A stretch of 64,000 nt of DNA from Somniosus microcephalus (taxonomy: Eukaryota). Every line of letters starts with the position of its first letter. Within the stretch, counting starts at the first letter, position 1. Made by a program: the position numbers and the translations under genes. Below, one piece after another: positions 175-64,000 of this stretch. The notes under the pieces were generated by a model. That model worked only from the letters and a program-made list of their open reading frames with translations, was not told the origin of the DNA and ran no database searches. The stretch covers positions 31,062,001 through 31,126,000 of the forward strand of contig JBMRGM010000043.1 of the NCBI GenBank assembly GCA_052327205.1, given 5' to 3'.

Positions 175-1225
175 ATATGGGGTGGGAGGAGGTGACTAGT
201 GGTGTTTTGCAAGGATCAGTGCTTGGGCACCAGCTATTCACAATAAATATCAATGATTTGGATGAGGGAACCAAATATAATATTTCCAAGTTTGCTGATG
301 AAATGACACGAGGTGGGATCGTGAGTTGTTATTAGGAGGCAAAGTGTCTTCAAGGAGATTTAGACAAGTTGAGTGAGTGGGCAAAACCATTGCAGATGCA
401 GCATAACGTGGATAAATGTGAAGTTATCCACTTCGGTTGGAAAAACAGAAAGGCAGAGTACTAAATAAATGGTGATAGATTGGGAAATGTTCATGTATAA
501 AGGGACCTGTGTGTCCTTGTACCCCAAACACTGAAAGCAAATATGCAGGTACAGCAAGCAGTTAGGAAGGCAAGTGGTATGTTGATATTCATTGCAAGAG
601 GATTTGAGTACAGGAGCAAGGATGTCTTTCTACAGTTATAGAGGGCCTTGGTGAGACAACACCTGGAGTACTGTGTGCAGTTTTGGTCTCCTTACCTAAG
701 AAAGGATGTACTTGACATAGAGGGAGTGCAGCGAAAGTTCACCAGACTGGTTGCCGGGATGGCAGGACTGTCGTATGAGGACAGACTGGGTCGACTAGGC
801 CTGTGTTCACTACAGTTTAGAAGAATGTGTGGATCTCATTGAAACGGTTAAAATTCTGGCAGGGCTACGCAGACTGGATGCAGGGAGGATGTTTCCCCTG
901 GCTGGCGTGTCTAGAACGAGGGGTCACAGTCTCAGGATACGGGGTAGGAAGTTTAGGACTGAGACGAGGAGAAACGTCTTCACTCATAGGGTGGTGAACC
1001 TGTGGAATTCTCTACCACAGAAGGCTGTGGAGGGCGAGTCACTGAATATATTTAAGAAGGGGATAGATAGATTTCTAGACACAAAAGGCATCAAGGGGCA
1101 TGGGGAGAGAGCTGGAATATGTTTGTGAGACGTAGGATCTGCCATGATCATATTGAATGGCAGAGCATGCTCGAAGGGCTGAATGGCCTACTCCTTCTCC
1201 TATTTTTCCATGTTTCTGTGTTTCT
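175..1225 (+). mobile_element. CR1 (HER1-like) LINE, 5'-truncated RT C-terminus and 3' tail, frameshifted
   Basis: Encodes QGSVLG..LFTININDLDEG / KFAD motifs. ORFs 648 (HLEYCVQFWSP) and 829 (RTRGHSLR..VVNLWNSLP) are typical CR1 ORF2 C-terminus. Ends in a short (tgtttc)-type tail. Confidence 0.93.
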
Positions 1226-1538
1226 AAGCTGGGTCCGGTGTAAATCACAAAATCCTGATTTGCATGGTGACAGAGGAGTACCGCCAGGAAAAGGCAGGTG
1301 CTTCTGCCGCCCAAAGGTCGGCCATTCTAAAAGTTTAAGCAGCCAGGGAGTTTCCGTTTACAACGTGCTGAGGTCGATATCAACGATGTAAAGTCATCAC
1401 CAACTCAAAAGATCGATCCATGGGCACCCGATAGGTAGCGCCCATTTTGGACAGCGACTAGAAATTCTCTGTAGTGGATATTGCACAGATTAGTTTCAAC
1501 AATTCTAATCAGAACATTATTTTATTTTCATTCTACAG

Positions 1539-1793
1539 CCCATGTCCCAGAAGTAGTCCTTAGCAATCCGAGCGATGGAATCGTGAAAGAAGGGGAGACA
1601 TTTTACCTGCATTGTCGATACAGAGGCATGAATCAATGGGCTTATTGGTATAAAGATGAGACTTATATTCATTATAAATATATGTTCTTTGAAAGATATG
1701 CAGATAGTCGCAGTGGAGCGTCTTACCAGTGTTCAGTGCCGCTGCTTTGGTCCTCCTCTGAGAAGAGTAAACCTCTGGATTTAGTCACCATTG
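1539..1793 (+). CDS. Gene 1 Ig exon A (C2-set, FcR D1-like)
   Basis: ttctacag| acceptor, G|gtaggt donor, 255 nt, phase 1-1. AHVPEVVLS..KEGETFYLHC..W..GASYQC..LDLVTI with canonical Cys/Trp/Cys. Confidence 0.9.
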
Positions 1794-3588
1794 GTAGGTA
1801 AACTTCGACACCAATGATCATAGCACAGTTTTAGTCGAGAAATGTGTCGCTTATAAAGGGGCCTCACAGTCAAATATAGTACAGGATATCAAGCACATGC
1901 AATACTGGGATAAAATTGGACCACTGGGCAGAAGTGTATCTTCATCCCTCCTCCTAACAGGGGGACCTCTCGGTTTCCCCAGAGTTGAAATATATGCCGC
2001 TATTTTGTGCGGTAGTATCAGCCAGTTTCACCTCCCATTTATATCACATTAACTTCAATTGAAATATCGCACAGAGTCTAAATCTACCCAAATTCTTACA
2101 TGTTGTTAGGTCAATCAAATGTTATTTATTTCAAGAGAGACCTTAAACCGCTAATTGTGCATGGAACAGCGGCTCTCTAAAACAGCAGATACGAGAAAGC
2201 CACCGTTAATATCTCCTAGAGTAATTTTAAGACTGTGTTGAAAGCTTAAATTCTATTTCCAAAGTTCAAACTACAAAATCTGTGATCTGCAAACTAGTTT
2301 ATATTAATAATAATGACATCTGAGAATTGCTGTGTCGCTGGTCTGATATGCAATGACTTCTCCATTTAAACATTACTTCATCCTCTGCGAAGTAGGTTGT
2401 AGGGTGACCCATCACAGGTTTAAAATCCAACTTTGGTGGAAGCACGTAATGGGCTCTACTCTCTCCAACCCTGTTACAAATCAAATGTAAAAGTCATAAA
2501 ACCGACTGCTGTTTCGTATTCGCTCATTTGCCGCCAATGTGTATTACAAATTTATACCGGAGTGGGAATAACTTTACCTTTCATCGCAGGGTGAAATAAA
2601 CAGGCGAGGTCCAATCAATCGCCATGTTTTAGATTCAGGTGGAGTCGCATTTCTATTTACTTCAGTGTTAAATAAATCGAGAGTGGTTTGAAACTTATGG
2701 CTGCTCCATTACTGCCCTTTGGCCTCTTGGCGGTAAAAGTGAAAAGTAGCTCAAGTGTATCCTCCCGGCGCTCCCCTGGGATCAGGATTGGTTGGAAGTG
2801 CATCTGCAGACCCGAGGCATGGTGAGAAGTGGAGTGTACATTTATCTTGTGTCTCTCAGAAAACAAATTATTATGAGGTGCAACGAATGCTTTTATCTAG
2901 GTAATAAGCAATGCTAGAAAAATTGTTGATAGGTGACTAACTAGGGGCGCTCCTTGAGCACTGCCACAAGTTTATTGTATGTGCAGTGCAAAAACCCTTT
3001 ACATACATAAATGGGGTTCCCTTCCGCACACCTGGCGAAGTTACAGCGGAGGAGCGAAGGCAGGAAATTGCCCTGTGTTTCCACAAAAGGTAATGGGACA
3101 ATGAGCAGCTAATTTGTTTGGTCTTGCTGGACGAACGAGCAATACCCCAGGACACTGGAACGACTTCTTCGTCTTGGCGTCGTTCAATGGGATTTTTAAC
3201 TGATATCAGAAGCACCTGAACAGGTGAAAGCGGCCACGGTTTTAATATCTTGATTGCACAACATTTACAAATACCAGACGTTTATTTAGAGAGGGCTGGG
3301 CATCTGCCTGGCTGTTGAATCGATCCTCGCCATTGAACTTCGTTGATGAAACCTTGAAGGGCAATATGAGCAGTGATAGCTCAGCATTAGAAAGGGAACG
3401 GTCACTCTCTGAACCAATAAACATTAGTTTGGCTTTTCAGGTCTTAAAATTACTTTTAGTTACTGAGGTGATACCGATTGCTCTGGATATTGAGCTGCAC
3501 TTTCAAGCCAATGTTTTTTAACATTGAAGAATGGTGCTTTAACATATTTTAATTTGTATTTCGTTCATATGTTTCACTTTTTTTGCAG

Positions 3589-3855
3589 CTTCTGATATGA
3601 ATTTAACTCTGGAAGTGAATCCAACATCCGCACTGTCATGTGACAGTATTATCCTGAAATGTTTGATGCCTTCCTGGAAATGGAGAGAAGGTTTTCCCTT
3701 CCTGTGGTATCGAGATAAACAGTTAATAGCAGAAACTGACGAATCTCAGTACACCATAGAAAACGCAAAAGAGTCAGATACGGCACCATATCGGTGTGAA
3801 CTCAAAATACGTTACAGGAAGTGGATCTCCCCGGATGTAACCATCACCATAAAAA
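3589..3855 (+). CDS. Gene 1 Ig exon B (C2-set)
   Basis: ttttgcag| acceptor, A|gttggt donor, 267 nt, phase 1-1. ASDMNLTLEVNP..ILKC..FLWYRD..DTAPYRC..VTITIK. Confidence 0.88.
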
Positions 3856-3944
3856 GTTGGTCACTGCTTTTCTTTTTCATTTTCTTTATTTGATCTGGTA
3901 ATGAGCTGTTGAAGGATGTGAAGTATTCTAAGAATCCTTGGCCT

Positions 3945-4235
3945 ATATATGACTGCACAACCACAGAAATGTGGTTGACTCTTAATCCCCTCTGAAATGG
4001 CCTGGCAAGCTACTAAGTTTTATCAAAGCACGAGAAAAAACTGTAAGATTAAAACTTGGAGGAACACCTGGCATTGAACTAGGCATCATATTCGGACACA
4101 GATAAGACACACAGTCAACCCTGCAAAGCCCTCCTCCCTAACATCTGGGGACTTCTGCAAAAATTGGGACAGCTGTCCCACAGACCAGTCAAGCAATAGC
4201 CTGTCATAGTGATGATCACAGAATCATACCTTCCA
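3945..4235 (+). mobile_element. LINE/SINE-derived repeat fragment
   Basis: ccacagaaatgtggttgactcttaa..ctgaaatggcc is shared with the repeat near 62320-62360. It sits where gene 2 has its D exon region. Confidence 0.5.
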
Positions 4236-4643
4236 ACCAATGTGGTGGCTGGGTGGTGACAGAGTGATGTAACTGTGAATATTTGCAGAATTCACAGTGA
4301 TCATAGTAGATGTTGAGACACAGCAGGGAATAGCGAAAAGAGCAAAGTTCTATTGAAGGATTCATACTTGAATAAGTCTTGCACAGCGTGGAGTTCCTGT
4401 ATCAGCAGAATATATTAAGCAGATTAAGTTCTCCGCAAACAAAGCAGCGAGTGCAAATCCATAACAATATAGTAATGCTGCCTACTGGAGTGTTCCACAA
4501 TACAGCTGCTGGTTACCATTTAGTACAGTCGCACCTCGTGGTGGTTCTTGGTATATCCTTGCTCTTGTTATCAATAATCTCTGCTATTTGTTTAACTATA
4601 TGAGATGAATTCTTACCTCCCAATCCATATTCTGTTTTCACCG

Positions 4644-4921
4644 AACTCTTCTCCAAACCTAAACTGAGGACTGAGCCTACAGTTAAAATATTTGAGGTAG
4701 ATCAGTTAAAATTCATTTTTTTTATTGAAACAATGCTGTTCAATATTAGGCTTCAATACACATTTCACAAAAATGGCAAAGCTCTGCAGTTGAATTCATA
4801 CATCAACTCTAAGCACATGGGGGCAGCTTCTTTGAAGGGCTCGGTGACTTAGCCTTGTTGAGCAAATGCTTTCTACCACCGTGATAACAACAGAGTGATG
4901 AGGTTTCCATTACGGTAGAAG
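4644..4921 (+). pseudogene. Gene 1 dead Ig exon C (FcR D3-like pseudoexon)
   Basis: Homologous to 41797-42072 and 47853-48131, but the acceptor AG is mutated to CG (ttttcaccg|aactc), there is a TAC>TAG stop near 4850, and the first Cys codon is lost. Confidence 0.85.
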
Positions 4922-6256
4922 GTAAATAGAACCAGCTGTAATTACTGTTCATCTTTCATTTAAAGAATTTTTCAGGGGATTATAGATAAATAAATATACG
5001 GGAGGGATCCAATGTGGAAAAAGATTTACTCCCAGCTTTATCACATAATAAATCAATTTTGGATGTGATCTGTTTAAATCAAAGCGCCACCTGGTTCTAT
5101 ATAAAATCCATACATTTACTGAAACCCACACTTGTAATAGCTGCAACGTTTGAAGACCAGTGTCCACTCCCAGTGGCTAATATTAGCTTCCTGCAATAGT
5201 GTCGAATGGGCGATACTGAATTTGCCTCCCATTATATGTCCCTCCCGTGTTTGCGTCGCATCATTATCATTGGACAGGAACATCGTGCGTGGTGTACAAT
5301 TGGTGCAAGATTCGATACCATGCGTTTTACACCATGGATCCAAGGTCAAGTTACCTCCTCTGTTTCTGTCTGACTGAATCAGCAACGAGCAGAACCTGGT
5401 CAGGAACAGCACGGTGTTTAATCAGACAGTGCCTTACCACTTACTAGTCCCGGCAATCGTTGCTAGCTGAAATCTCGGTGCTAAAATTTAACTTGGAGAG
5501 TGCAGTAGATAATTGGCAGACAAGGAAATCGAATTTCACCTGTGTGTAGATAGTATGGCCAATGAGCTACTACCGGTTTTGCACCCCAGACAAACTTGAA
5601 TTTCCACCCCTCCAATTTCAGTAGAGGGGGATGACGGGGTGGCAAAACGCCGGAGGCTATTGAAGGCTGAGCCCCTGATGTCCGGCCTCTCGATTGCGTT
5701 CAGTTAGAATCTGCCAATCATAACTCTATCTTTACATTTTAAAAGGAGCAGGCAATCAGAACACCAAGTGGGTGTTATCGATCCTGTGTCATCAGTGCAT
5801 TTTCAAAGAATTGCATTGTCCATAGCTGAGCGTTTAACATGAATGTCCTAAAATGTGAAGGTGCTGCAACAATGACCAATGAGGTTTCAGTATTTAAGAC
5901 TTGGGCATAAAGCATCGCCTGGGCGGAGAGCAGAGTCCAAAATCTGAGTGGGGGGAATGGGGTGGGCTGAAGAGGGATAATCTCACAGGACCCGCAGGGT
6001 GTTTCCTCCATTCATTTTAACGGAAGGGTTAACTTCTCCCCAAATCTAGCCACGAGAGTATGTTCAGATGTCGGTGTTCCAAAGTGCATCTTCCTATAAA
6101 CAGAGTGCAACCAAGGATTATTGAACGGCTCTTTCTTTGAACCGCTGTCAGCATTTCATTGCTCTGATCATTAACTTGTGTTATCCAAACAAATACTTTC
6201 ATAAATCTTTGAGAGATGCTTCAGCTGGTAAATCTATTTTTTACTCTATTTTATAG

Positions 6257-6535
6257 AGCTCTTCTCCAAACCTACATTGAGGGCTGATTCTGAAGCTCAA
6301 ATATTTGAGGGCCAACAGTTAAATCTCGCATGTTTGGTTGAAATATTTTGCTCCAATTCGTCTTTGAGATATGTATTTTTCAAAAATGAACAAGCTCTCA
6401 ATTCAGCGGCAGACCACAACTATTACATCAAGGAGACATCACTGCTGGACGATTCGGGGATTTACCAGTGTGAAGCAAGTACTTTGAACAGTGAGGTGAA
6501 GAAACTGAGTAATCAGGTTTCTGTTTCAGTCAGAC
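6257..6535 (+). CDS. Gene 1 Ig exon E (FcR D3-like)
   Basis: ttttatag| acceptor, C|gtgagt donor, 279 nt. ELFSKPTLRADS..EGQQLNLAC..YVFFKN..DSGIYQCEA..SNQVSVSVR. Confidence 0.9.
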
Positions 6536-7414
6536 GTGAGTACAATTTACTGTTAGAATTTAGCATCTTTCATCCACAAAATTCCCAGCAGGTTCGCACA
6601 CGGGGATTGATCCGTGAAGTAAGGGCCTTACCTATATGTTCAACATGCACTGAATACATAAATAACTAAATTATTGTCGCATAGACAACAGGGGAAAGGA
6701 AATAATAGCATGTTTATACAACACATTCGTGAGGCCACAGATACTGTGTCCAATGTCCTGCCTTCCATTTTAAAGAGAACAGTAAAATCACAGAAAACGG
6801 GCAGCGTTGATTCACCAGATGACGCCAGGGATGGAAAACTTTATTCACCAGAATAGACTTGAGCTACTGGCACGAACACTACCGGAGTAGCCATGGCTAA
6901 GAGTTATTTCATTACTGTTTATTACATGATAAGACCGAGATAGGGTGATAAGGGAATGGTATTTACTCTGATTGCGAAGACAGGAAGGAGGGATCATTGA
7001 TGTATAATTATCAATATAAGCGGGAGGATAGCTTAGAAGAACGTTCTTTATTCGAGGATTGCTGGAACAAAGAATGATTGGCCAAGTGGAGCAGTGGAGT
7101 TAGATGCAATTGCATTTAGGTAGATAGTGTTTATGGTACTGGAATAGTGCAGAGTTAGTAGGAATCAGTACCAGGCCAGAGATAGTAGGGTGGCCACTAG
7201 TGGATTGCAATAGGAATCATTGCAATTCCAGAATCAGTTTTTCCTCTATTAATTCCACTGACTGCTGAAGTAGGAGAGGGGCACGGGCGCCCAAGATTGG
7301 AGTGGTAACCTAAATGACGAGGCTCTTTATTTTGATGAGAGCCCTATTTCACTTTGAAAGTAATACTACAAATTCCACAAAAGCAATGTAATTGACAAAT
7401 GGTTATATTTACAG

Positions 7415-7702
7415 GAATCCCAGTGTCCAAACCGGAACTGGCAATCAGCCCTGGTAAAGAGTTACTGGAAGGCGACACAGCATCGTTAACCTGCTCAGTG
7501 TTCAACGGTTCTACCCCGATTACCTACATATTGTACAAAGGCCCAAATAAAGAACTCTTCCGAGAGGAGTCCAACCTAACCGAAATTACTTACCAAATCG
7601 GTAAAGTCAACCAAAGCACCCAAGGGGATTATATTTGTGGTGTTTCAAACGAAGCGACCAGACGTCCTCTACACAGCGATTTTGTTACGGTTGCAGTGCT
7701 AG
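7415..7702 (+). CDS. Gene 1 Ig exon F (membrane-proximal, FCRL D5-like)
   Basis: tttacag| acceptor, G|gtgagt donor, 288 nt. IPVSKPELAISP..EGDTASLTCSV..GSTPITY..GDYICGVSN resembles FCRL 'IPVSRPVL..GSPPILY' domains. Confidence 0.9.
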
Positions 7703-8094
7703 GTGAGTTATTATAAATACCTCTGAGGCAGAACGAAACAAGTGACTCAGTGAGAACAGTCCGGGAATCACTGCTTTTGCCAATAGCTTGGACGTTGTAA
7801 CATCTTCTTTGACATTCTTCTGTGTGAAGTGAGGCACTGCGCCATTTACATTAAACAGGTGAATGCCTAAAAAGAACAAGAATGTCATCTGATTGCATCA
7901 AGTATTGGTCTACAAACTGCAACTGTTAGTTGTAGATTTAAAACGGCTGATCAGTCTGTTTAATTGACAAATTGAGAGAAGTTATACGGAGAGGTTAATG
8001 ACGACTCAAATCTTAATACCATCGGCAGTAATTTTTGGGCTATAAATTTTAGAACATCATCTCTTAACCGTAGCTGCTAATACTTTTGTATTTG

Positions 8095-8200
8095 TATATG
8101 GGATTGGGCGTCGCTGGCAACATTTGCTTTAATTGGCCATCCCTAATTGCCCTTGAGAAGGTAGTGGTGAGCCACCTTCTTGAACCGCTGCAGTCCACGT
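8095..8200 (-). mobile_element. LINE 3'-end fragment (L2/CR1 superfamily)
   Basis: ccctaattgcccttgagaaggtagtggtgagccaccttcttgaaccgctgcagtcc. The same element occurs at the matching intron position of gene 2 (50975-51560) and in + orientation at 54230-54550 and 62420-62645. Confidence 0.7.
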
Positions 8201-8209
8201 GGTGATCAT

Positions 8210-8678
8210 CCAAATTCAGTACCCTGTCCCTGCTTTCTACCCACATCCCTTGATCCTGTTAGCCTTAAGCAACATATCTAACTCCTTCTTGAAAATAATT
8301 AATGAATTGGCCTCAACTTCCTTTTGTGGTAGAGAATTCCACAGGTTCTCCACTCTCTGGGTGAAGAAATTCCTCCTCATCTCTGTTCTAAATGGCTTAC
8401 CCCTTATCCTTAGACTGTGACCCCTGGTTCTGGACTCCCCGACTATCGGGAACATCCTTCCTGCATCTAATCTGTCGAGTCCTTTTAGAATTTTATACGT
8501 TTTATTGAGATCCCCTCTCATTCTTCAAAACTCCAGTGAATATAAGCCCAATTGACCCAATCACTCCTCATACGGCATTCCTGTCATCCCAGGTATCAGT
8601 CCAGTTAATCAGCGCTGTACTCCCTCCATGGCGAGAACATCCTTCCTCAGATAAGGAGAACATCCTTCCTCAGATAAG
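8210..8678 (-). mobile_element. CR1 LINE RT C-terminal fragment
   Basis: ORF 8237-8521 (MRGDLNKTYKILKGLDRLDAGRMFP..RTRGHSL..NLWNSLP). The 5' junction has a short direct duplication (agaacatccttcctcagataag x2). Confidence 0.9.
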
Positions 8679-8682
8679 TTAC

Positions 8683-8868
8683 TTGAGGGCCAACAGTTAA
8701 AACTCGCCTGTTTGGTTGAAATATTTCGCTCCAGTTCAGCGGCAGACCACAACTATTACATTAAGGAAACATCACGGCCTGACGATTCGGGGACTTACCT
8801 TGGTAAAGCAACTACTTTGCACAGCGAGGTGAAGAAACTGAACAATCAGGTTTCAGTTTCAGTCAGAC
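8683..8868 (+). pseudogene. Gene 1 truncated second E-type Ig exon
   Basis: Homologous to 6257-6535. The 5' part and acceptor are replaced by CR1, about 40 nt of the C-strand region is deleted, and the second Cys is lost (TYLG). The donor C|gtgagt is retained. Confidence 0.82.
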
Positions 8869-9061: not shown

Positions 9062-9163
9062 TGCAGATTCACACAACCGCGATCAGAGCCTCAGTTTTTA
9101 CACTTTTTCTTGTTGCTGCCCTGATTGCACTGGTACTCGTCAATCGTCCCAACAAGAAACAAG
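9062..9163 (+). CDS. Gene 1 transmembrane exon with Arg (VQIHTTAIRASVFTLFLVAALIALVLVNRPNKKQ)
   Basis: ttattccag| acceptor, G|gtgagt donor, 102 nt, phase 1-1. Hydrophobic stretch with an AGA Arg codon at 9085-9087. Same length as the gene 2 TM exon. Confidence 0.88.
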
Positions 9164-9687: not shown

Positions 9688-9718
9688 AAAATTCTTCAAG
9701 AATTTCACAATCGTTTGG
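9688..9718 (+). CDS. Gene 1 cytoplasmic mini-exon 1 (ENSSRISQSFG)
   Basis: tatccag| acceptor, GG|gtaagt donor, 31 nt, phase 1-2. Paralog of 53059-53089. Confidence 0.8.
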
Positions 9719-10639
9719 GTAAGTCCACGCAATTTTTAGCTGAATAAGCCATAGCTATATCCCTGAATATACTCAGTCTCTGTATAGCTGAACTAAACGC
9801 GGTAAATGCTTGTGCGGTAGATTTTATCAATTGCATTGAACTTTAATCTGGCATTACGGATCAGCCTCCTGTTATAGAAAACACCATATTTTAATTTAAT
9901 TTGAGTTGAATGGGATTGAAAAACATGTGGTTTCTACAACGCGTGTCTGTTCTGCTACACCACTTTTTATTCCGGGCACCGAGTTGGAAAATCTGCCCCA
10001 TTGACGATAAGCCTTTACTGTAGCTCGCACTCAAACGATTACACTCCCTGCAGTCTATAAGGAGTGATCATTTTCTAAGTTATGTCAGTTGTACCTGAAC
10101 TTCCTAACTTAAACAGAGTGAAATTCGCCCTGCGTGGCACAGTAAAAGGGGTGATTACAAATCGTTTTACAGTCCGCAGATTAGATTCCAGTGACTTGTA
10201 AACAAATATTGGGCGGAGTGTAAAAACTGTTGGAGTTTCGTTTAACCCTGCTCTCCACCACCGCCCAAGAAGAAATTATACCCCAAACTCTTCAATCACT
10301 CAGTGAGCTGGACTATTCTTTAATCCTCCAATTTAATCCTCATGTAAATCACAGGGACCTGAAGCATTCTAGGATTTGGTGTGCAGGGCGATTGCGCATG
10401 TAGTTAATTTTAGTAACATTCACACAGTGACTATCTCAGGCAGTGGTCCATTTAACTGAACAAGCTTTTCTGGATACAGTTCTACTATTGATCAGCTTGA
10501 ACAGTGTTTGTTGGCTTGGAATATCTAGTCCCCTTGTGAATCCAGTCGCTGTTTATTTTCCGACTCCCCTATGCTGGACATCATTCCACATGTGTTTTAA
10601 CCTCTGACTGAATGTTGCTTGAACTTTCGATACGCTTGT

Positions 10640-12050
10640 GTGGCCCTCAATTTGAAACTGTGGCACTCTTCTAGAGCTTCGGTATGGAAGCACATCTCTA
10701 TACGCATTACCCAATCCTGTCATAACCATAAATAATAATTTTTAAAACTTCTCCATCTTCTTTCAAGATTGATTTTTTTTTAAATTACTCCAACTCCTTT
10801 CAAGGCTTTATCTCCCTGGTTTTGTAACTAATCTAGTGACCCAGCCTTTATATTCAACAAGCGTCTAGTATGTTTCTCTTATTAAAAAGATATCAACATT
10901 GTATTCACTGCGCCAGATGTGGGACATCTGCTGGGCAGAGCACAGAAAGGAAGATCTGGTCGGAATGATCTCTTGCTGAAAGCAGAAACGCTTGATTTCT
11001 GTTCCATTAAGTACCGTGAAAGGAAAATCCTGCATGTTCTGTAAAAGATGTGTTAACCTCTCCACCATATTCTCATCTTTGCATTCCTTCAACATGATTC
11101 TTAACAAACAAATGGCAGGAAAAATCATTGATACCCCATGAACTTGCATCAATACCAATTATAAATTTACGGTTATCTTTCTTGATTTCTGTGGCCCTCA
11201 ATTTGTAACTGTGGCACTCTTCTTGAGCTTCGGTATTAAAACGCATCTGTAAGCACATTCCACCATCCTGTCATAATCATAAATAATATTTCAAAAAACT
11301 TCTCATTCTTCTTTCAAGACTAATTTTTTCAAAATACTCCAACTCCTTTCATCACTCTGTCCCCTTGGTTTTGGAACTAATCTAATGATCCTGCCTTTAC
11401 ATTCATCAAGAGTCTAATATGTTTCTCTTATAAAAATGATATCAACACTGTACTCACTGCGCCAGATGTGGGACATCTGCTGGGCTGACAGCATAACGTA
11501 TGTTCAGTTGGAAGGTATCCCTTGCTGAACGCAGAACCGCTTGATATAAACACATATAAAACACATCTGTATGCACATTTCCCAAAAACCTCTTAATCAT
11601 AAATAATTATTGCTAAACTTCGCATTATTCTTTCAAGACTGAATTTTATCACAATACTCCAACTCCTTTCAAGGCTCTATCGCCCTGGTTTTGAATGTAA
11701 GCTCGTGACACGCCCTTTATATTCAACAAAAGAATCAATGTTTATTTTATTAAAATGATACCAGCACTGTACTCCCTGCGCCAGCTGTGGGACATCTGCT
11801 GGGCAGAACACAGAAAGGAAGCTTGGTTGGGAAGGAGCTCTTGCCGAAAGCAGAACCACTTGCTCCCTGTTCCATTAAGCTGCGTGCAAGGAAAATCCTG
11901 CCTGTTCTGTAAATGATGTGTGAACCTCTCCACCAGGTTCCTCTTTGATTTCCTCCAACGTGATTTTTAGCACAAAAATCATAGAAAAAATGTTTTTAAC
12001 AAAGGACATGCTCCAATACCAACTATAATTTTAAGGTTATCTCCCGTGAT
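10640..12050. repeat. Three diverged tandem copies of a ~0.55 kb unit (middle copy truncated)
   Basis: Recurring blocks: tgtggccctcaatttg (10640, 11190), tactccaactccttt (10786, 11335, 11655), gccagatgtgggacatctgctgggc (10911, 11461, 11780). Confidence 0.85.
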
Positions 12051-13053
12051 TTATAAGTTACACGGTGGTGATATATCTCAACATTCTCTACAGTTCCTAA
12101 TTCACTTTCAACACTGCACCCACTTTTTTTTTTAAACTGATACCCAAATATCAATGATACATTCTTCCTTTTATTTGGTATTGAATCCTCCCTTCCATTT
12201 AGGACACAATGGGTCAAATTTGCTTTTCCAATGGAGTTGAAAGCAGGTGGTAAGGGATGGCCGGCCAGTTTTACACACAGCCTACTTTCCATTTCCAAAT
12301 TCGGCTGGAGTGTAAGACGAGCGGCTGAGCCTTTACCACCCATATTCTGCTGGACGGTAAAAGTGAATATTAACTTCAACTTTCCAACTTGCCGCTCGGG
12401 CATAAACTGCCATTTCTGGTCAGCCGTCCAATTGAGATTGCGCCCGATTATCCTGTGAAACAATTTCGAAGCTATGAAAATCCGGCGAGTGCTGTTTCTT
12501 ACTGCCCAGCAGTAATGTGGATCATATACCCCCCGCCAGGAGACACTCTTACTACGTTACAATCTTCAACCATAATCAGTATAACTTAATTTGGGGCCGC
12601 AGCACACAGCGAGCACTAACGAATCTATTGCACATTTTGGACTCGACCGATTTTATTTTCCATAAATTTCAATGGATCAAAAATGATCTAGAGGATTTCT
12701 AAATGGACAGCCGATTCGCTACATTTCGCTTTGCGGTGTCTTCAAGGACCAATTTCTACTGAAGTGAGTCATGATAAGGGAAATCTGGAAAATATCTGAG
12801 GTAATTCAGGATCTGCTGAGAGAACGACGTTAGACCCCTGGGGAGGAAAGTGCCACGGATCGGCAACCTGTCTACCTTGAGCTTCTTCAACTGGTCCAAT
12901 GGATGTGGACTTGCAAGTTTAAGGTTATGTCTCTTGTAAACTGCTTGCTTGTTTTTGATATTTATTCTACTATTTCATCTTATTTGAAAGTAACATTTCC
13001 GTTGTCCACGATTATTGTTAAACTTTAATCTCTGTGAACATTTCCGCACTTAG

Positions 13054-13139
13054 GGAGGCAACTAGAAACAGACCTCCAAGTGAAGAGAATTCTGCAGACA
13101 ATTCCGAGTCTGCAGGTGTGCGATCAGCTCAAAGCACCG
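13054..13139 (+). CDS. Gene 1 cytoplasmic exon 2, tyrosine-less (EATRNRPPSEENSADNSESAGVRSAQST)
   Basis: cacttag| acceptor, G|gtaagt donor, 86 nt, phase 2-1, matching the previous exon. Paralog of 55121-55212. Confidence 0.8.
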
Positions 13140-13409: not shown

Positions 13410-14100
13410 TTATATCTCTAACATTATCTCAAAGTCTATGTCAGTGGCTGGTCTACATCTATATCTGTGTCTATGTCTATGTCTCTCTCTATGTCTATTC
13501 CTATCTCGAACTCTATGTTGATCTCTATGTCCACCTCCATCAATCAGTCTTTACCTATCTCCATATCTATGTCTAGCTCTATCTTTATATCTCTACTTCT
13601 TTATCCACCTCCATCTCTCTATCTCTACGTATATCCCAGTCTCTCGCAATCTATCATCATGCCTCACTATATTTCTTTACATTTATCTCGCTTTCCATCG
13701 CTCCATCTCTCTCTCTATCTATCTATTTGTATCTATCTCTATTGATCACTCTGTCTTGCTGGTTACAACTCTATCTCTCTCTGTCTATGTCCATTTAGAT
13801 ATCGATCTCTAGCTCCCCTATCTCTACGTCTATGCCAGACTCTTTCTATATGTTTATGCACCTCTATTTGTATCAAATAATTTATTAGTATCTCTATCAC
13901 TGGCTCTAGTTATTTGTCTACCAGTAACTCCAAATTTATGTCCGTCTCAATCATCTCTCTGCCTCTGTGCCTATCAATATCTATTTCGATTTATATCCCT
14001 CTTTCTCTATATTCTATCTCTATCTTTATCTCTATCACTATCACTATCTCTGTCTCTATCTCTACCTCTGTCTAAAATCTCTACTCCCTATCTCTTTCTC
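13410..14100. repeat. Low-complexity (TATC/TC)-rich tract
   Basis: Degenerate tctatc/tatctc repeats. A comparable shorter tract precedes the ITIM exon of gene 2 (56750-56960). Confidence 0.85.
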
Positions 14101-14129
14101 TAAACCGTCATTAATCTCTGATATTACAG

Positions 14130-14170
14130 TCGTACTCTTATGGACACCTGTTGCTTGCGAAACTGTGTAA
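14130..14170 (+). CDS. Candidate terminal exon of gene 1 (VVLLWTPVACETV*)
   Basis: attacag| acceptor in phase 1, TAA at 14168-14170, AATAAA at 14202. The flanks resemble those of the gene 2 LVYSEV exon. Other acceptors (e.g. 13361) are possible. Confidence 0.3.
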
Positions 14171-15169
14171 ATCCTGAGTGAAATATGATGGCTCTCTACA
14201 GAATAAAATTGTGCCTTATGTAAAGAATCAGAAAGTTAAATTATACTAATATTGCAGTTAATTTACTTGGATACTCTTAAGAGCCGAGATGGATTTCCTT
14301 CTCCACCACTCGGTCGAACGAAATAAAAGTGATCTTACTGTCCTTAGATATCTTTTTCTTAATCTTTATATTCGATCTGATAATTAATTCCTTGTGAAAA
14401 CATATCAAACGAGTAACAGAAATGGACTCAAAATGTGCAATACAATAGAGAATTTTGCATTGATAGAATGTTAATTTCCTTTCATGGAAAGTTTGAATCT
14501 TCTGACTGTAACGAGGCTCATGTGACATGAATCATCAGCAACTGGAAGGCAATCGAGAGCCTGAGCACCAAGAAGATAAATACAGATGTTCGGAGTCTAC
14601 AGGAATCTACAGAAAATTCTGAAGGCAATAGTTGAAGCAAGCATGTTATTCCTACAAGTGACTAAAGAACAATATTGCTGGGGAGCACCTCAGTTCGTGA
14701 TGTTCATTCAAAGCAAAAACTGTCAATCGTCACGATTCAACCACGATTTGGATTTTTCTTCACAAGAGCCTCTATGTACAGAACCTGATTCATTTCATTG
14801 CTGTATACAGCTGTTGATGCCTCATCACAGAGAATAAGGGGCCCAAGTTGAATAACTTCAGCATCTGTTTCTGGATGTAGATGCCATGAGGCCAATGATC
14901 TAATGAAACTTTTGGTAAACTAGCTTCCTGACTGTGCCTGAAATATTTTCATTCTGACCTAAATGACTTTCGATCGCTTGGACATTTCGCTTGTATACGC
15001 CAGATTAATAACTGCTTACCTCCCAGATGTTTCGGGACATCTTCTGATTGATTGATTTCGCCTGGAGTTTCTGTATTGGTACTAATTGTCTGCTTATAAA
15101 CCTGGATGTATCATTTCAGCTACTGAAGAATTGGATTAGGTTCTGGACAGTTTCATGTGTAAGCCTTAT

Positions 15170-42072: not shown

Positions 42073-43401
42073 GTAAGGACAGCCAGCTGTAATTATTGTT
42101 GAATGAAAGAATTCTTCAGGGGATTATACTTAAATAAACATACGAGAGGGATCCAGTCTGGTAAAGGATTTACCCACAAGTTTATGACGTAATAATCAAT
42201 TTTGAATGCAACCTGCTAAATGACAGCGCCACCTGGTTCTTACACTATCCATACATTTGCTGAAAACCGAAGTTTTAAAAGCTGCTACGTTTGAGGACCA
42301 GCGCCCACTCCCAGTGGGTAATAGTAGCTTCCTGAAATAGTGTGTAATTGGGCGATATTGAATTTATCTCCCATTATATGTCCCGACCGTTTTTGCATCC
42401 ATTGATCTTCAATGGACAGGAATATCGCGCGTAGTGTAGAATTGGTGCAAGATTCGATGCCGTGCATTTTAACCCATAGCCCCAAGGTAAAGTTACCTTC
42501 CCTGTTTCTAACTGGCATATTCAGCAGCGAGCAGAACCTGGTCAGGAACAGCAGGGTGATTAATCAGCCAATGCCTTACCACTTACTAGCCCCGGAAATC
42601 TTCTATAGTTGAAAACTCGGGGGTAAAATTTAACATTGACAGCGCTAAAACTGAACGGCAGAAAATTGAATTGAAATTGGCCTGTGTTTATAAAGGATGA
42701 TCAATCTGCTACCACCGGTTTTTTACCCCAGACAAACTTGAATTTTCACCCCCTCCAATTTCAGTAGCGGTGGATGCAAAATGCCCGAGGTCACTAACGT
42801 CTGTGCCTCTGGTGCCCGGGGATTCCTTCCCAATCTTTTAGATCCGACCAATCATAACTCGAGCTTCGCATTTTCAATGGGGCAGGCAATCTGAAAACAA
42901 GGTGGGAGTTATCAATCCTGTGTCGGCAGTGGATTTCAGAAAAATTGTATTGATAGTAGCTGAGCGTTTAACATGAAGGTCCTAAAATTTGCAGTTGCTG
43001 CCACAACGACCAAGGATATTTCAGTATTTAAGACCCGGGAGTAAAGCATCGCCTGGGCTGAGAGCTGAGTTCAAATGATGGGGTTGTGGGGTTGGGGTGT
43101 TGGGGGATAATCTCACAGGACCCGCAGGATGTTTCTTCCATTCATTTCAATGGAAGGGTTAACTTGTTCCCAAATCTAGCCACGACAGGATGTTCAGACC
43201 TCAAGTGATAACTGTGTCAAGGTCCCGAACTGCATATTCCCGTAGCAGAGCGCAATCAAGGATTATTGAAAGCCTCTTTCTCTGAGCTGCTGTCGGCTTT
43301 TCATTCTTCTGCTCATTAACGTGAGTTGTCCAAACACATAAATTGTTAAGTCTGTGATGGATGTGGAACCCGGAAAATCCATGCATTATTCTATTTTATA
43401 G

Positions 43402-43680: not shown

Positions 43681-44737
43681 GTGAGTACAATTTAAGACAA
43701 TGTTATAACACTTTTAAAGAGAACATGAAAATCATAGAATACGGGTAGCGCTGATTCAACAGTACACCAGGGAAGTAAAAGTGTATTCACCAGGATAGAC
43801 TTGAGGTATTGGGACTAACACTACCGGGTTAGCCATAGCTAAAGGTTATTTCATTAGTGGTTTTTAAATGCAAATTCCGAAATTGGGCGATTAGGGAAAG
43901 ATATTTTCTCTGATTGCGAAGACAGGAAGGAGGGATCAGTAATGTATAATTATCATTAAAGCGGGAGGGTAGCGCTTAGAAGGACGTTCCGAGTGCTGGA
44001 ACATAGAATGATTTGCCAGGTGGAGCGGTGGAGTTAGATAGAATTTTACAGTGAACCTGAGGCTAGTGGCAGTGCCCTCGGGCCTACTGATGTGCGCCTG
44101 TCACTGCCCTACAGAAACCAGCGTAAGCCCGTCCCAACATAGGCAGATCTCTTGCTAATGGATGAGAGAGTGTAGCTGAGGCCAGGAAGGTTTGGCGCAC
44201 TCTTTCCTTATCGTCACAACGCAACTCGGGCACTGTGTGCCCTCTGGGAGGCTCAGAAAGCAAAAGGAGCTGGATGCACACCTTCCATAATCTGGTCGGA
44301 GGGGGGGATGGAATGCACCTCACAGCATCCGGTGGAGTTTCCTTCTGTTGAGATCAATGGAGTACATTTACTGTGAGTTCGGTAAGCAATAAGTGATCAC
44401 TAGTGCTAGATTTTCTAATCCCTTATGTGCTCGGGCGTTGCTTAACCGTCGTTCCCAAAATAGTTTATTTTCAGTGTATCAAACTAAGAAGAGCTGGGCC
44501 AAATGGTGGGGAGCTGCTGCACGAGGATAGATTATCAATAAACCCCATTTACAACCATCAGTAAATTCAACACCACCCGACTGCTGTTTCCTTTCTGTTC
44601 TTCTTTTTCCCAGACTTGCCTGGAGTTGGGATTGGGGTTTTCTCGTGTCCAATGTATACGGGCTGTTGTGGAGCAGTTCTCAGTTTGAGTTAAGCATTTG
44701 TTAAGCTAAAACCGCCACATTTTGTTCCCAACATTAG

Positions 44738-44995
44738 ATCGCAAATTGGCCTTCAATGTCGACCCACCTTCGGTTTTGGAAGGAGGTGTTCTGAATCTGA
44801 ATTGTTGGTTCAGAATGCATTATTGGAGGCATAAAGATGTTGGCTTTTACAAGGGCAATATAAGGATTCACTCAATGAAGTTGACCGATCGGAGAGCTCT
44901 GCATAGCATTAGAGTGAATAGTTCAAAAGACAGCAGATCATAGCATTGCACTGTTGGCAATAAGGAATCACGAAGTGTTCATGTTCACGTTCAAG
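44738..44995 (+). pseudogene. Gene 2 Ig exon D' with premature stop
   Basis: Duplicate of 40495-40749 with splice sites intact. TAC>TAG at 44941-44943. Confidence 0.85.
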
Positions 44996-49319: not shown

Positions 49320-49598
49320 AGCTCTTCTCCGAACCTACTTTGCGGGCTGATTCTGGAGCTCAATTATTTGAGGGCCAACAGATAAAACTCGCCTGTTTGG
49401 TAGAAATATTTTGATCCAATTCTTCCTTGAGACTCGTATTTTACAAAGATGGACAACCTCTCAATTCAGCGGCAGACCACAGCTATTACATCAGGGAAGC
49501 ATCTCGGCCGGAAGATTCGGGGATTTACCGGTGTGAAGCAACTACTTTGAACCGTGAGGTGAAGAAACTGAGTAATCAGGTTTCAGTTTCAGTCAGAC
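49320..49598 (+). pseudogene. Gene 2 Ig exon E' with premature stop
   Basis: Splice sites and both Cys are intact. TGA at 49412-49414 where the paralog at 43402 has CGA (CpG transition). Confidence 0.85.
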
Positions 49599-50288
49599 GT
49601 GAGTACAATTTAAGATAATTGTTTATCACTTTTAAAGAGAACAGGAAAATCATAGAGAACGAGTAACGCTGATTCAACAGATGATGCCAGGGAATGGAAA
49701 TTTTATTCAACAGGATAGACTTGAGCCACTGGGACTAACACGGGTTTGCCATGCCTAAGAGTTATTTCATCAGTGCTTAGTACATGCCAATTGCGAGATA
49801 GGGCGATTAGGGAAAGCTATTCCCTCTGTTTGCGAAGACAGGAAGGAGGATCAGTAAAGTATAATTATCACTAAAAGCGAGAGGGTAGCGCTTACGTGAA
49901 CATTTTATGTGTAGCTGACTGCTGGAAAGTAGAATTATTTGTCAGGTGGAACGGTGAAGTTAGATACCACTGCATTTAGGTAGAGTAATGTTTATGGTAT
50001 TGGAATAGTGCAGAGTTCCTGCTTTTCACTAGCAGAGTCAGGAGGAATAAGGACCAGGCCAACATAGTAGGGTGGCCATAAGTGGATTGCAGTAGGAATC
50101 ATTGTCGTTCCAGGATCAGGCTTTCCTCTATTAATTCCACCTACTGCTAAAGTAGGAGAGGGAGACGGGCGCCCAATATTGGTGTGGTAACCTATATGTC
50201 GAGCCTTCTTTATTATGATGAGAACCCTATTTCACTTTGAAAGTAATGCTACAAATTCTGCAAAAGCAATGTAATTAACAATTTGCAG

Positions 50289-52429: not shown

Positions 52430-52531
52430 CACAAAGTCACACAACCGCGATCACAGCAGCCGTTCTTCCACTTTTTCTGATCGCTACCCTGATTGCACTG
52501 GTTTCCTTCAAATTTCGGAAAAAGAAACAAG
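52430..52531 (+). CDS. Gene 2 transmembrane exon, uncharged (AQSHTTAITAAVLPLFLIATLIALVSFKFRKKKQ)
   Basis: attccag| acceptor, G|gtgagc donor, 102 nt. Hydrophobic helix followed by a basic stop-transfer segment. Confidence 0.9.
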
Positions 52532-53058: not shown

Positions 53059-53089
53059 ACAATTCCTCAAGTGTTTCACAGCCGCAGGG
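53059..53089 (+). CDS. Gene 2 cytoplasmic mini-exon 1 (DNSSSVSQPQG)
   Basis: tatccag| acceptor, GG|gtaagt donor, 31 nt, phase 1-2. Confidence 0.82.
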
Positions 53090-55120: not shown

Positions 55121-55212
55121 GGTGACAACTGAAAATAGATCTGTACCTCCGAGTGAAGAAACATCTGCGAGCAATTTCGAGTATGCAGTTGGGGGATCAG
55201 CCCCAAATACTG
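55121..55212 (+). CDS. Gene 2 cytoplasmic exon 2 (VTTENRSVPPSEETSASNFEYAVGGSAPNT)
   Basis: gcaaag| acceptor, G|gtaagc donor, 92 nt, phase 2-1. Tyr at 55182-55184 in a non-canonical FEYAVG motif. Confidence 0.78.
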
Positions 55213-56193: not shown

Positions 56194-56250
56194 CTTCTAG
56201 TTCTGATCAGGTAACCTACAGTTTAGTAGAAGGCACGAAGCCCATGGAAG
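56194..56250 (+). CDS. Gene 2 cytoplasmic exon 3 with ITIM VTYSLV
   Basis: Long polypyrimidine tract + cag| acceptor, G|gtaagg donor, 57 nt. ASSSDQVTYSLVEGTKPME. Confidence 0.85.
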
Positions 56251-56999: not shown

Positions 57000-57065
57000 A
57001 TATTACCGGAAATGCTGCCAATTTAGTGTATTCGGAGGTCACTATCAGAAAGTCACGAGACTGTG
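57000..57065 (+). CDS. Gene 2 cytoplasmic exon 4 with ITIM LVYSEV
   Basis: tctgtttag| acceptor, G|gtaaat donor, 66 nt. DITGNAANLVYSEVTIRKSRDC. Confidence 0.85.
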
Positions 57066-62645: not shown

Positions 62646-64000
62646 TAAAAAATTATCATCCCTTGTTTAAATTTAGTCGTTGGTTTATTCATTGCTCGTT
62701 TCATTCCAACCATTTTCTTTAATTTTTTTGCTATAAAATAAATTCAGAGAGGAATCATAAGTGTATTTTTGTGTGACCTCAGCCAGTTAATTGTCAGTAG
62801 TTTTGAACACACTGAAAATCGGGCGATATTGAATTGGCCATCCATTATCCATCTCTCCCGACTTCCCTTCCACTGAAATAACCACTGATTCTACCTCGCC
62901 AGCTGTGCACCACCGCCTGAGACCAATTTCAGCTTCCTGTTCATTAATTCCAGGCTAACAAGAATGGTCCCAACGACTATTGTGTCACATACGCCATAGT
63001 TAACCGTGCAAACACTGAAGCTAGTTTGGAAGGAGGCCCAATGGAAGAAGGCTGTGTCTACGAAAACTTTCCACGGAAATAAGAGCAAAGCAGGATTAAC
63101 AAGCATAGAAACAACAAAGAAAACAGAATGGAGGCAACGGCAATCAACTTGTGCTCTGCGCAAATTACCTGCCCTCAGGGACTTTAGTCTGAAGGCAGGT
63201 TAGGCCATTGTTCCTTGTGCAAGGCCTTCTAGGCACAGAGTTCGTGCCCGCCAGCCATTCAATTTATACGTATGTTTTACTCTGACAGGACTTTATATCT
63301 CTGCAGCTTATATTTTGCAGAGGGCTCCTACCTCTGGCTTTGGTGGTGCTACCTGCAAGACTATACTGTTTGTAAGACCATTACATCAGAATGTATACCC
63401 ATTTTATCCATGTTAAAATGCAATTAACTAACGGGCGTGTTGGGGCTCTTGCTCTAATATTCTGCCAGTGTTCTTGAATGCTTCCGTAACTGCAGAGGGA
63501 GATCAGTAGATCTTCTGGAGAAATTATGCAAATGGCCGAAGGTGGGAGAAAACCTGTAGCAATTTCCAGGGTCAATTTTTTCTTTAATAATGTTGTAAAA
63601 TGAATGCTATCAAATTGACCGCTTGTATAACCCCACGGCCTATTTACTTTTCCATTATTTTGAATAAAGGAAAAGCGGGCATGATGTACAATGGGAGCCT
63701 TGATTGATATCATACATTTCCCATCCTCGCCCAAATTCCAATCTATCTGACTGCCACAAATAAACTGTGTATAGAGTAACTGGTTACTGCTTAATCTTCA
63801 TCACCTTAGGGTTTAGCATTCGAGGGGCAGAGCGCAGGGTAATACATCTGGCGGGGAGGATGGCTTGTTACTTGCAAAACCCATCGAATTTTGCTTTCTT
63901 TCAGCCTTTAAACATCAGGCCATTCCGTTACCGGTATCCCTCTTGCCAAATCTTCCATCCACATTCTGGCGGTAAAGTCTGAACTCTACCTCACCATATA

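Follow-up and report, generated by a model that had tools for sequence, protein, structure and literature searches.

The window, by which we mean the whole 64,000-nucleotide stretch of Somniosus microcephalus DNA that was analysed (G000:C43:31062001-31126000, within a 6.4-Gb genome), contains most of gene 1, which has an Arg-bearing transmembrane (TM) exon, and gene 2, which has a Thr-bearing one. The two make up approximately one unit of a tandem array, and TM exons of the Arg class and the Thr class alternate along the contig. The elasmobranch proteins matching the Ig exons are mostly named Fc receptor-like by NCBI, some being PECAM-like, and the best solved-structure matches (PDB) of the shark homologue P0003 were FCRL5 (E 1.6e-57), FCRL4, and Fc-gamma-RI; both the names and the structures place the ectodomain closest to FCRL/FcR Ig domains. 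The features are as follows.

Just upstream of the window: two signal-peptide exons of gene 1, 31 + 30 nt
1539-1793, + strand: gene 1 Ig exon D1, 100% identical to the Thr gene at C43:31.76 Mb (the Thr twin)
3589-3855, + strand: gene 1 Ig exon D2, 99.3% identical to the Thr twin and 73.9% to gene 2
4644-4920 (end approximate), + strand: dead Ig exon D4 of gene 1, with acceptor CCG and two stops
6257-6535, + strand: gene 1 Ig exon D5, 98.2% identical to the Thr twin and 88.9% to gene 2
7415-7702, + strand: gene 1 Ig exon D6, 98.6% identical to the Thr twin and 90.3% to gene 2
8203-8205, no strand: junction of Thr-gene ectodomain and Arg module, an identity switch at a repeat edge
8203-8868, + strand: 5' end of the Arg module, a LINE fragment and a cut D5 exon remnant
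9062-9163, + strand: gene 1 TM exon, Arg class, 102 nt, phase 1, AG/GT-bounded, with AGA at 9085-9087
9689-9719, + strand: gene 1 cytoplasmic exon 1, 31 nt, predicted from splice sites and homology to gene 2 53059-53089
13054-13139, + strand: gene 1 cytoplasmic exon 2, 86 nt, Tyr codon lost (SESAGV)
14100-14330, + strand: start of a 3' region confined to the downstream side of Arg-class tails (20 matches; acceptor lost in some copies)
52430-52531, + strand: gene 2 TM exon, Thr class, 102 nt, phase 1, AG/GT-bounded, with ACA at 52453-52455
53059-53089, + strand: gene 2 cytoplasmic exon 1
55121-55212, + strand: gene 2 cytoplasmic exon 2
56194-56250, + strand: gene 2 ITIM exon (VTYSLV), absent behind Arg TMs
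57000-57065, + strand: gene 2 ITIM exon (LVYSEV)
62954-63082, + strand: gene 2 last coding exon (VTYAIV ITIM, VYEN)

Gene 1 has two signal exons, four open Ig exons, and canonical splice sites, and its predicted chain of nine exons reads through 456 codons without a stop. The signal peptide is split into exons of 31 nt and 30 nt, compared with the 30/21-nt rule of FCRL genes. The D4 exon, which is also stopped in the Thr twin, is likely skipped in gene 1. The LINE fragment of the Arg module lies on the minus strand at about 8203-8660, and the cut D5 remnant (8674-8868), found in 11 of 11 gene-1-type copies, is in frame if spliced in, giving 521 codons. Two further exon candidates were dropped for lack of conserved splice sites or RNA support: one near 10027, a last exon with a stop, and one of 37 nt near 14129. 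The region at 14100-14330 is not a conserved exon and is possibly 3' UTR. The intron between the gene 1 tail exons contains three degenerate direct repeats (10636-12052), which measure approximately 400-550 nt and resemble one another at 78-83%. In gene 2, two Ig exons (44737-44994 and 49322-49600, approximate) have in-frame stops and splice sites that look intact, and its Ig exon near 43400 is missing the second Cys; of three sister copies examined, two are free of these stops. Upstream of gene 2, duplicated blocks contain three copies of the first signal-peptide exon (23527, 29099, and 32149).

The two TM exons were aligned over their full length. An earlier note on this DNA had given the exon bounds, the positions of AGA and ACA, and a 15-mer common to both exons (9070-9084 in gene 1, 52438-52452 in gene 2), all of which we find as described. 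It had also held that a single nucleotide, ACA versus AGA, sets the two TMs apart. Between the two exons, however, 24 of 102 nt and 13 of 33 amino acids are different and 78 of 102 nt are shared, and the one-nucleotide title is therefore overstated. Among the further differences, Thr replaces the TM Pro in gene 1 and the Lys/Arg cluster directly after the helix is absent, so the alignment bears out the note's observation that gene 1 lacks the Pro and part of the basic juxtamembrane stretch. The introns flanking the TM exon are alignable between the two genes and thus homologous. The gene 1 TM exon has at least 11 genomic copies identical over 181 nt.

At least 46 paralogous TM exons were pooled from two genome searches, each of which scored the best 40 of 46 candidates. 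The codon at the Arg/Thr column is AGA in 21 and ACA in 25. The Arg class comprises 8 distinct sequences, on average 11% apart and all with AGA, and the Thr class 13 distinct sequences, all with ACA; a sequencing error or a rare allele, either of which would have undone the earlier proposal, is thereby ruled out for the Arg. The classes are completely separated at 11 nucleotide columns and 6 amino acid columns. A tree built from the introns only (29 distinct rows, two of them long) gave the Arg/Thr split a support of 99/100. In a tree of 80 columns, the seven Arg rows form one clade (support 100/99), whose placement is weak: its sister support, with Heptranchias, is 85/74, Thr monophyly has 33/76, and nesting of the Arg clade inside the Thr class is not firmly given.

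The change was polarised across paralogs and orthologs, the check that had been suggested. The outgroup set consisted of the 30 elasmobranch proteins with a TM out of 46, leaving out 6 without a TM, 9 sturgeon proteins, and 1 toad protein. At the column they have T in 11, A in 8, V in 4, M in 3, S in 3, L in 1, and R in 0, although the proteins are automated annotations in which Arg-type genes may be missed. Eight further shark-like proteins, read by eye, also have no Arg there. Because no Arg occurs at the column in the 30 other-elasmobranch proteins, this distribution gives good support to Arg being the derived state. The idea that the Arg TM came from the family's own neutral exon, and not from a separate exon, fits the homologous exon and introns as well as the outgroups; the gene 1 TM exon matches that of gene 2 at 78 of 102 nt and the genome's separate NxxR-like exon at 28 of 102. 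An origin within this receptor family is thus very probable. A point change does not make up the whole difference, since 11 nucleotide and 6 amino acid columns separate the classes.

The tails divide along the same line. Gene 2 has three ITIM-consensus motifs, all in distal exons. A VTYSLV exon follows 25/25 Thr exons and 0/21 Arg exons at a distance of up to 15 kb; the search returned 29 matches, including two duplicates and two from copies without a TM. The last ITIM exon gave 27 matches, which by eye were assigned to the 25 Thr TMs and these two TM-less copies. As in the activating members of paired receptors, the tail of the Arg class is depleted of ITIMs, the distal ITIM exons being absent behind 21 of 21 Arg TMs. 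Arg genes retain the first two tail exons. Among seven Arg lineages, tail exon 2 has S-E-Y-x-x-V in five, is frameshifted with an altered motif in one, and has lost the Tyr in the gene-1 type; an ITIM-like single motif is thus still present in five Arg genes, and the predicted tail of gene 1 has no Tyr in the 46 residues known so far. Extra tail matches were considered as missed TM exons and rejected, as they belong to TM-less partial gene copies. Three such copies have tail exons and no TM exon (L089, L090, and L091-L092), and it is possible that they represent soluble forms or pseudogenes.

We then compared the ectodomain of gene 1 with those of other genes in the genome. Window positions 575-8205 match a Thr gene with ITIMs, located at C43:31.76 Mb, with 99.4% identity, 575 being the start limit of the compared stretch and not of the identity, and from 8203 onward the window is 96.3% identical to another Arg gene. 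The gene at 31.76 Mb has its ITIM exons present. Gene 2 exons are 74-90% like those of gene 1 where alignable, and the twin of gene 1 is therefore the 31.76-Mb gene; gene 2, which had been set beside gene 1 in the earlier note, is not its paired partner. Near-identity to an ITIM-bearing partner, as expected of a paired receptor, amounts to 98-100% in the four Ig exons.

Arg and Thr genes are mixed in trees of the ectodomain, in which 14 Arg and 12 Thr genes were examined: the D6 tree (23 rows) has 4 Arg/Thr changes, at least 3 of them forced, and the D5 tree (32 rows) has 7, at least 4 of them forced. Among the 11 identical TM copies, six have an ectodomain of the gene 1 type and five one of another type, and the two types match different Thr genes, at 99.4% and about 93%. 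The Arg module was also found elsewhere. At 25.3 Mb it follows a divergent FCRL ectodomain of five domains, and a neutral TM candidate is present in the native paralogue (89%) of that ectodomain. At 21.5 Mb it is located 14 kb downstream of a two-Ig gene, where the only recognised intervening frames are of a transposon. The linkage of this two-Ig gene to its downstream Arg TM is an inferred one. The two-Ig gene itself (L107:8108-8470 and 4499-4834, minus strand, 14 kb upstream of the Arg TM) has a second domain that matches CHIR-AB1, PIR-B, and LILRA2 weakly over its length (E 0.013-0.09), and its 95% paralogue has no convincing TM exon within 50 kb. Judged from these identities, gene 1 is a chimera of a Thr-gene ectodomain and an Arg module, and the trees and the shared module show swapping between genes.

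The position of the Arg was compared with a standard of eight FCRL-like proteins that have NxxR TMs. In all eight distinct Arg exons 18 apolar residues follow the Arg, compared with 16-17 in seven of the eight NxxR TMs and 19 in one. The best 19-residue hydropathy window begins 1-2 residues after the Arg here and 2 residues before it in 7/8 NxxR TMs. The Arg of gene 1 is thus 1-2 residues further from the cytoplasmic end and just outside the best hydropathy window, a register call that was made with a simple hydropathy scale and may be off by 1-2 residues. The earlier note had placed this Arg in the same register as the NLIR-type Arg: it does lie at the N-terminal edge of the helix, but the register is not identical, being 1-2 residues further out. 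A profile of the eight NxxR TMs with the Arg column removed matched the Arg exons no better than shuffles (p 0.47-0.72, 8/8), whereas for the genome's TM1-like exons none of 2000 shuffles was as good (6 of 12 loci evaluated).

The Asn three residues before the Arg, which the note had reported as absent, is replaced by Thr in gene 1 and in seven of the eight distinct Arg exons, and is present in one (two copies). The gene 1 TM also has no likeness to the NxxR/TM1 type beyond the Arg (DYT-type start, His/acidic end), its Arg is by hydropathy not inside the helix, and its tail lies in exons separate from the TM (at 9689 and 13054) where the NxxR/TM1 type has a single exon. Because of the longer core and the absence of profile likeness, we conclude that the gene 1 TM falls by sequence outside the NxxR type, although it may function in a similar way. 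Directly after the helix, seven of the eight NxxR-type TMs have no basic residue. Lys or Arg 1-2 residues before the column also occurs in four ITIM-bearing outgroup proteins, and therefore an edge charge alone is not diagnostic. The Arg, which is fixed in 21/21 Arg-class exons but at the outer edge, is a candidate for the basic TM residue of activating paired receptors.

Several related TMs were noticed during this comparison. Two of the 21 Arg exons (L020:1542-1640 and L021) read N-T-I-R, a full NxxR motif that appears convergent; the copy checked has a frameshifted ectodomain, and the N-T-I-R copies are nested in the Arg clade. A TM1-like exon (L152:435-545, L160-L171; C43:23-42 Mb) reads P-L-V-R followed by 16 apolar residues and then E-H, with 38 matches. 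These TM1-like exons lie downstream of LRC-like Ig exons, a family separate from the Arg/Thr one and found on several contigs when the best 150 of 708 candidates were scored; it has the appearance of a large shark family of LRC-type receptors. Sturgeon proteins P0034, P0038-P0040, and P0043 have G-Y-R at the TM and a short tail without a Tyr motif, and P0042 and P0044 have a homologous TM with G-F-S, one of them with three ITIM-like motifs. The sturgeon G-Y-R TMs are possibly another independent origin of an Arg TM.

A receptor of this kind would require an ITAM adaptor in the same species. Akula et al. 2014 (PMC4016189) reported sharks as lacking FcRL, FcR-gamma, or LRC-type genes. A search of the genome with the Pfam zeta family profile picked out two exons above the cut-off, each encoding Cys and Asp, so that such an adaptor is present at the level of TM exons. 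An FcR-gamma-type TM exon (L048:1489-1596, minus strand) scored 46 bits to FcR-gamma and 38 to CD3-zeta, and a CD3-zeta-type TM exon on another contig (L047:1492-1581, plus strand) scored 45 to CD3-zeta versus 36 to FcR-gamma; a candidate distal ITAM-half exon lies 10.5 kb downstream of the former. According to PMC7801909, R209 of FcalphaRI pairs with D11 of FcR-gamma. A complex prediction for the TM peptide and two FcR-gamma TM chains, run without folded controls, scored 0.07 against a mark of 0.34, which speaks neither for nor against pairing. In catfish LITR 2.6b, adaptor binding did not need the TM charge, as PMC4810170 describes it.

A comparison within the Arg class gave no sign of selection (pN 0.119 versus pS 0.125), and on the exon tree the probability that AGA survived by chance is approximately 0.43. 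A lower estimate of 0.04, by which AGA would have been kept beyond chance, was abandoned because insertions inflate the intron tree (length 1.39) on which it was based. Many Arg genes look decayed: two have frameshifts or stops, one of these having also lost the TM donor, two have a frameshifted second tail exon, and one has no ectodomain within 20 kb. Two RNA runs, of which 24% and 31% were read, left the TM exon uncovered at 92% likeness and put a few reads into two bins of Ig exons; at 80% likeness the same partly read runs gave one TM-exon read with 7 differences, with no joints listed. Searching proteins with the region of the Arg exon, which is a weak test, gave 0 of 69 candidates at E up to 10.

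In the interpretation that we favour with moderate confidence, the exon at 9062-9163 belongs to an ITIM-poor Arg tail module that would derive from the family's inhibitory tail and, placed on sister ectodomains, form activating twins that dock FcR-gamma or CD3-zeta. FcR-gamma-coupled activation by the Arg class is somewhat more probable than not. Three findings beyond those of the earlier note strengthen the activating reading: the whole Arg class has lost ITIM exons, modules have been swapped, and FcR-gamma is present in the genome. The pattern is that of a paired-receptor system whose activating tail was likely derived from an inhibitory one, as in KIR and Ly49. All the TM exons are homologous and fall into two clades, and the outgroups suggest an ancestor of the Thr type with ITIMs. 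On one branch ACA would have changed to AGA and the TM Pro to Thr, the basic cluster would have been reduced, and the three distal ITIM exons lost. The switch was presumably stepwise, given that five Arg genes keep the membrane-proximal S-x-Y-x-x-V that gene 1 lost. Gene 1 may then have been made by unequal crossover at a repeat, to which its 99.4% ectodomain identity points. At the outer membrane edge, the Arg is predicted to pair with an Asp in the TM of the FcR-gamma dimer, which would then signal through its ITAM.

That the Arg class consists of ITIM-less decoy or non-signalling receptors, with an incidental Arg that rode along with tail truncation, is rather unlikely. The Arg lies beyond the best hydropathy window without NxxR likeness, a signal of selection is absent, and inhibitory outgroups have edge charges as well; once the cytoplasmic basic cluster was lost, the helix could have shifted inward so that the Arg stayed outside. 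Nevertheless, NxxR-type TMs also have no basic residue right after the helix (7/8), an 18-residue core would still put the Arg within reach of the interface, and the Arg, the basic-cluster loss, and the ITIM loss coincide on one branch, which is the KIR/Ly49 pattern. We give less credit still to the view that the module is a remnant in decay, which unequal crossover has spread neutrally through a tandem array rich in repeats, and that gene 1 makes no protein. Most older Arg genes have defects, dead exons and TM-less partial copies occur throughout the array, and the 11 identical copies expanded jointly with neighbouring Thr genes, but in gene 1 both signal exons are present, four Ig exons are open, the splice sites are canonical, and 456 codons read without a stop, and the account in PMC2213150 would lead one to expect a short life of activating genes anyway.

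The older, one-Tyr members may also be read as dual receptors, with KIR2DL4 as the model. More broadly, the Arg class would then be activating or dual through a DAP10/DAP12-type adaptor or through Arg-independent FcR-gamma binding, which we regard as improbable. The register differs from that of NxxR, five Arg genes retain S-x-Y-x-x-V, and binding in catfish LITR is charge-independent as described in PMC4810170; an N-terminal Arg is, however, the FcR-gamma pattern in the accounts of PMC2413239, PMC6557307, and PMC7801909. The remaining explanation, in which the Arg TM goes back to an old NxxR/TM1 exon whose Arg was lost in the Thr type, is largely refuted and deserves hardly any weight. It could draw on the separate NxxR TM exon of Xenopus FCRL-like receptors, as given in PMC2413239, and on the N-T-I-R of 2/21 Arg exons, but those copies are nested in the Arg clade, 0/30 outgroups have Arg, the Arg exon shares 78/102 nt with the Thr exon compared with 28/102 with the genome's TM1-like exon, and the introns are homologous. 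TM1 genes, as far as PMC2413239 describes them, also have the TM and tail in one exon, which are separate in the Arg class.

The activating module derived from the inhibitory tail would be an independent stepwise case of an inhibitory receptor giving rise to a likely activating twin, in cartilaginous fish. Tentatively, a cartilaginous fish may have turned an inhibitory FCRL tail anew into one that docks FcR-gamma, arriving convergently at the Arg and in one instance at N-x-x-R. This tail would serve as a mobile cassette for two or more FCRL subfamilies and possibly for an LRC-like gene, in a genome whose large LRC-like family keeps the ancient TM1 helix. If true, FCRL, LRC-type TM1, and FcR-gamma coupling would all be older than bony fish. 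Shark FCRL-like proteins are already present under automated NCBI names, and the genome adds FcR-gamma and the TM1-like exon family. In the literature covered, which did not extend to most subscription journals, we found no description of paired FCRL-like receptors in sharks. The ectodomain pairs, 98-100% identical, are ready to assay, and an edge Arg without the NxxR context allows a direct test of its sufficiency for FcR-gamma docking; the conservation of that context is left unexplained in PMC6557307.

Human FCRLs signal mostly through their own tails. Gene 1 resembles mammalian FCRL and Fc-gamma-RI genes in its split signal peptide, with a first exon of 31 nt, and differs in a second signal exon of 30 nt instead of 21. 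Like FcalphaRI, GPVI, LILRA, NKp46, and OSCAR as described in PMC6557307 and PMC7801909, it has the Arg at the outer end of the helix, and FcR-gamma with a TM Asp is present in the shark genome. It differs from this group in its ectodomain family and in having no TM homology beyond the Arg, with no Asn, no DYT, and no acidic helix end. The XFL receptors of Xenopus, in the description of PMC2413239, likewise form a large FCRL family with two intermingled signalling classes in similar numbers, an Arg near the N-terminal TM edge, and domain shuffling. In XFL, however, TM1 is a separate LRC-type exon encoding TM and tail (PMC2413239), whereas here a neutral exon has been modified, two tail exons are kept, the Asn is missing, and the core is longer.

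The closest parallel is that of KIR and Ly49, in which, according to the account in PMC2213150, activating receptors arose from inhibitory ones by TM charge and ITIM loss and then spread by recombination. The shark family shares with them a charged TM residue and ITIM loss on one branch, spread onto other ectodomains, and intermediates that combine the charge with an ITIM (PMC2213150). KIR uses Lys and DAP12 (PMC2213150), whereas an edge Arg is found here, and whole ITIM exons were lost in place of a stop inside the ITIM. The ectodomains here are of the FCRL type, the animal is a cartilaginous fish, and the activating function is a predicted one. The inhibitory-to-activating process is thus one already known from KIR and Ly49, and the shark FCRL-like case is a variant of it.
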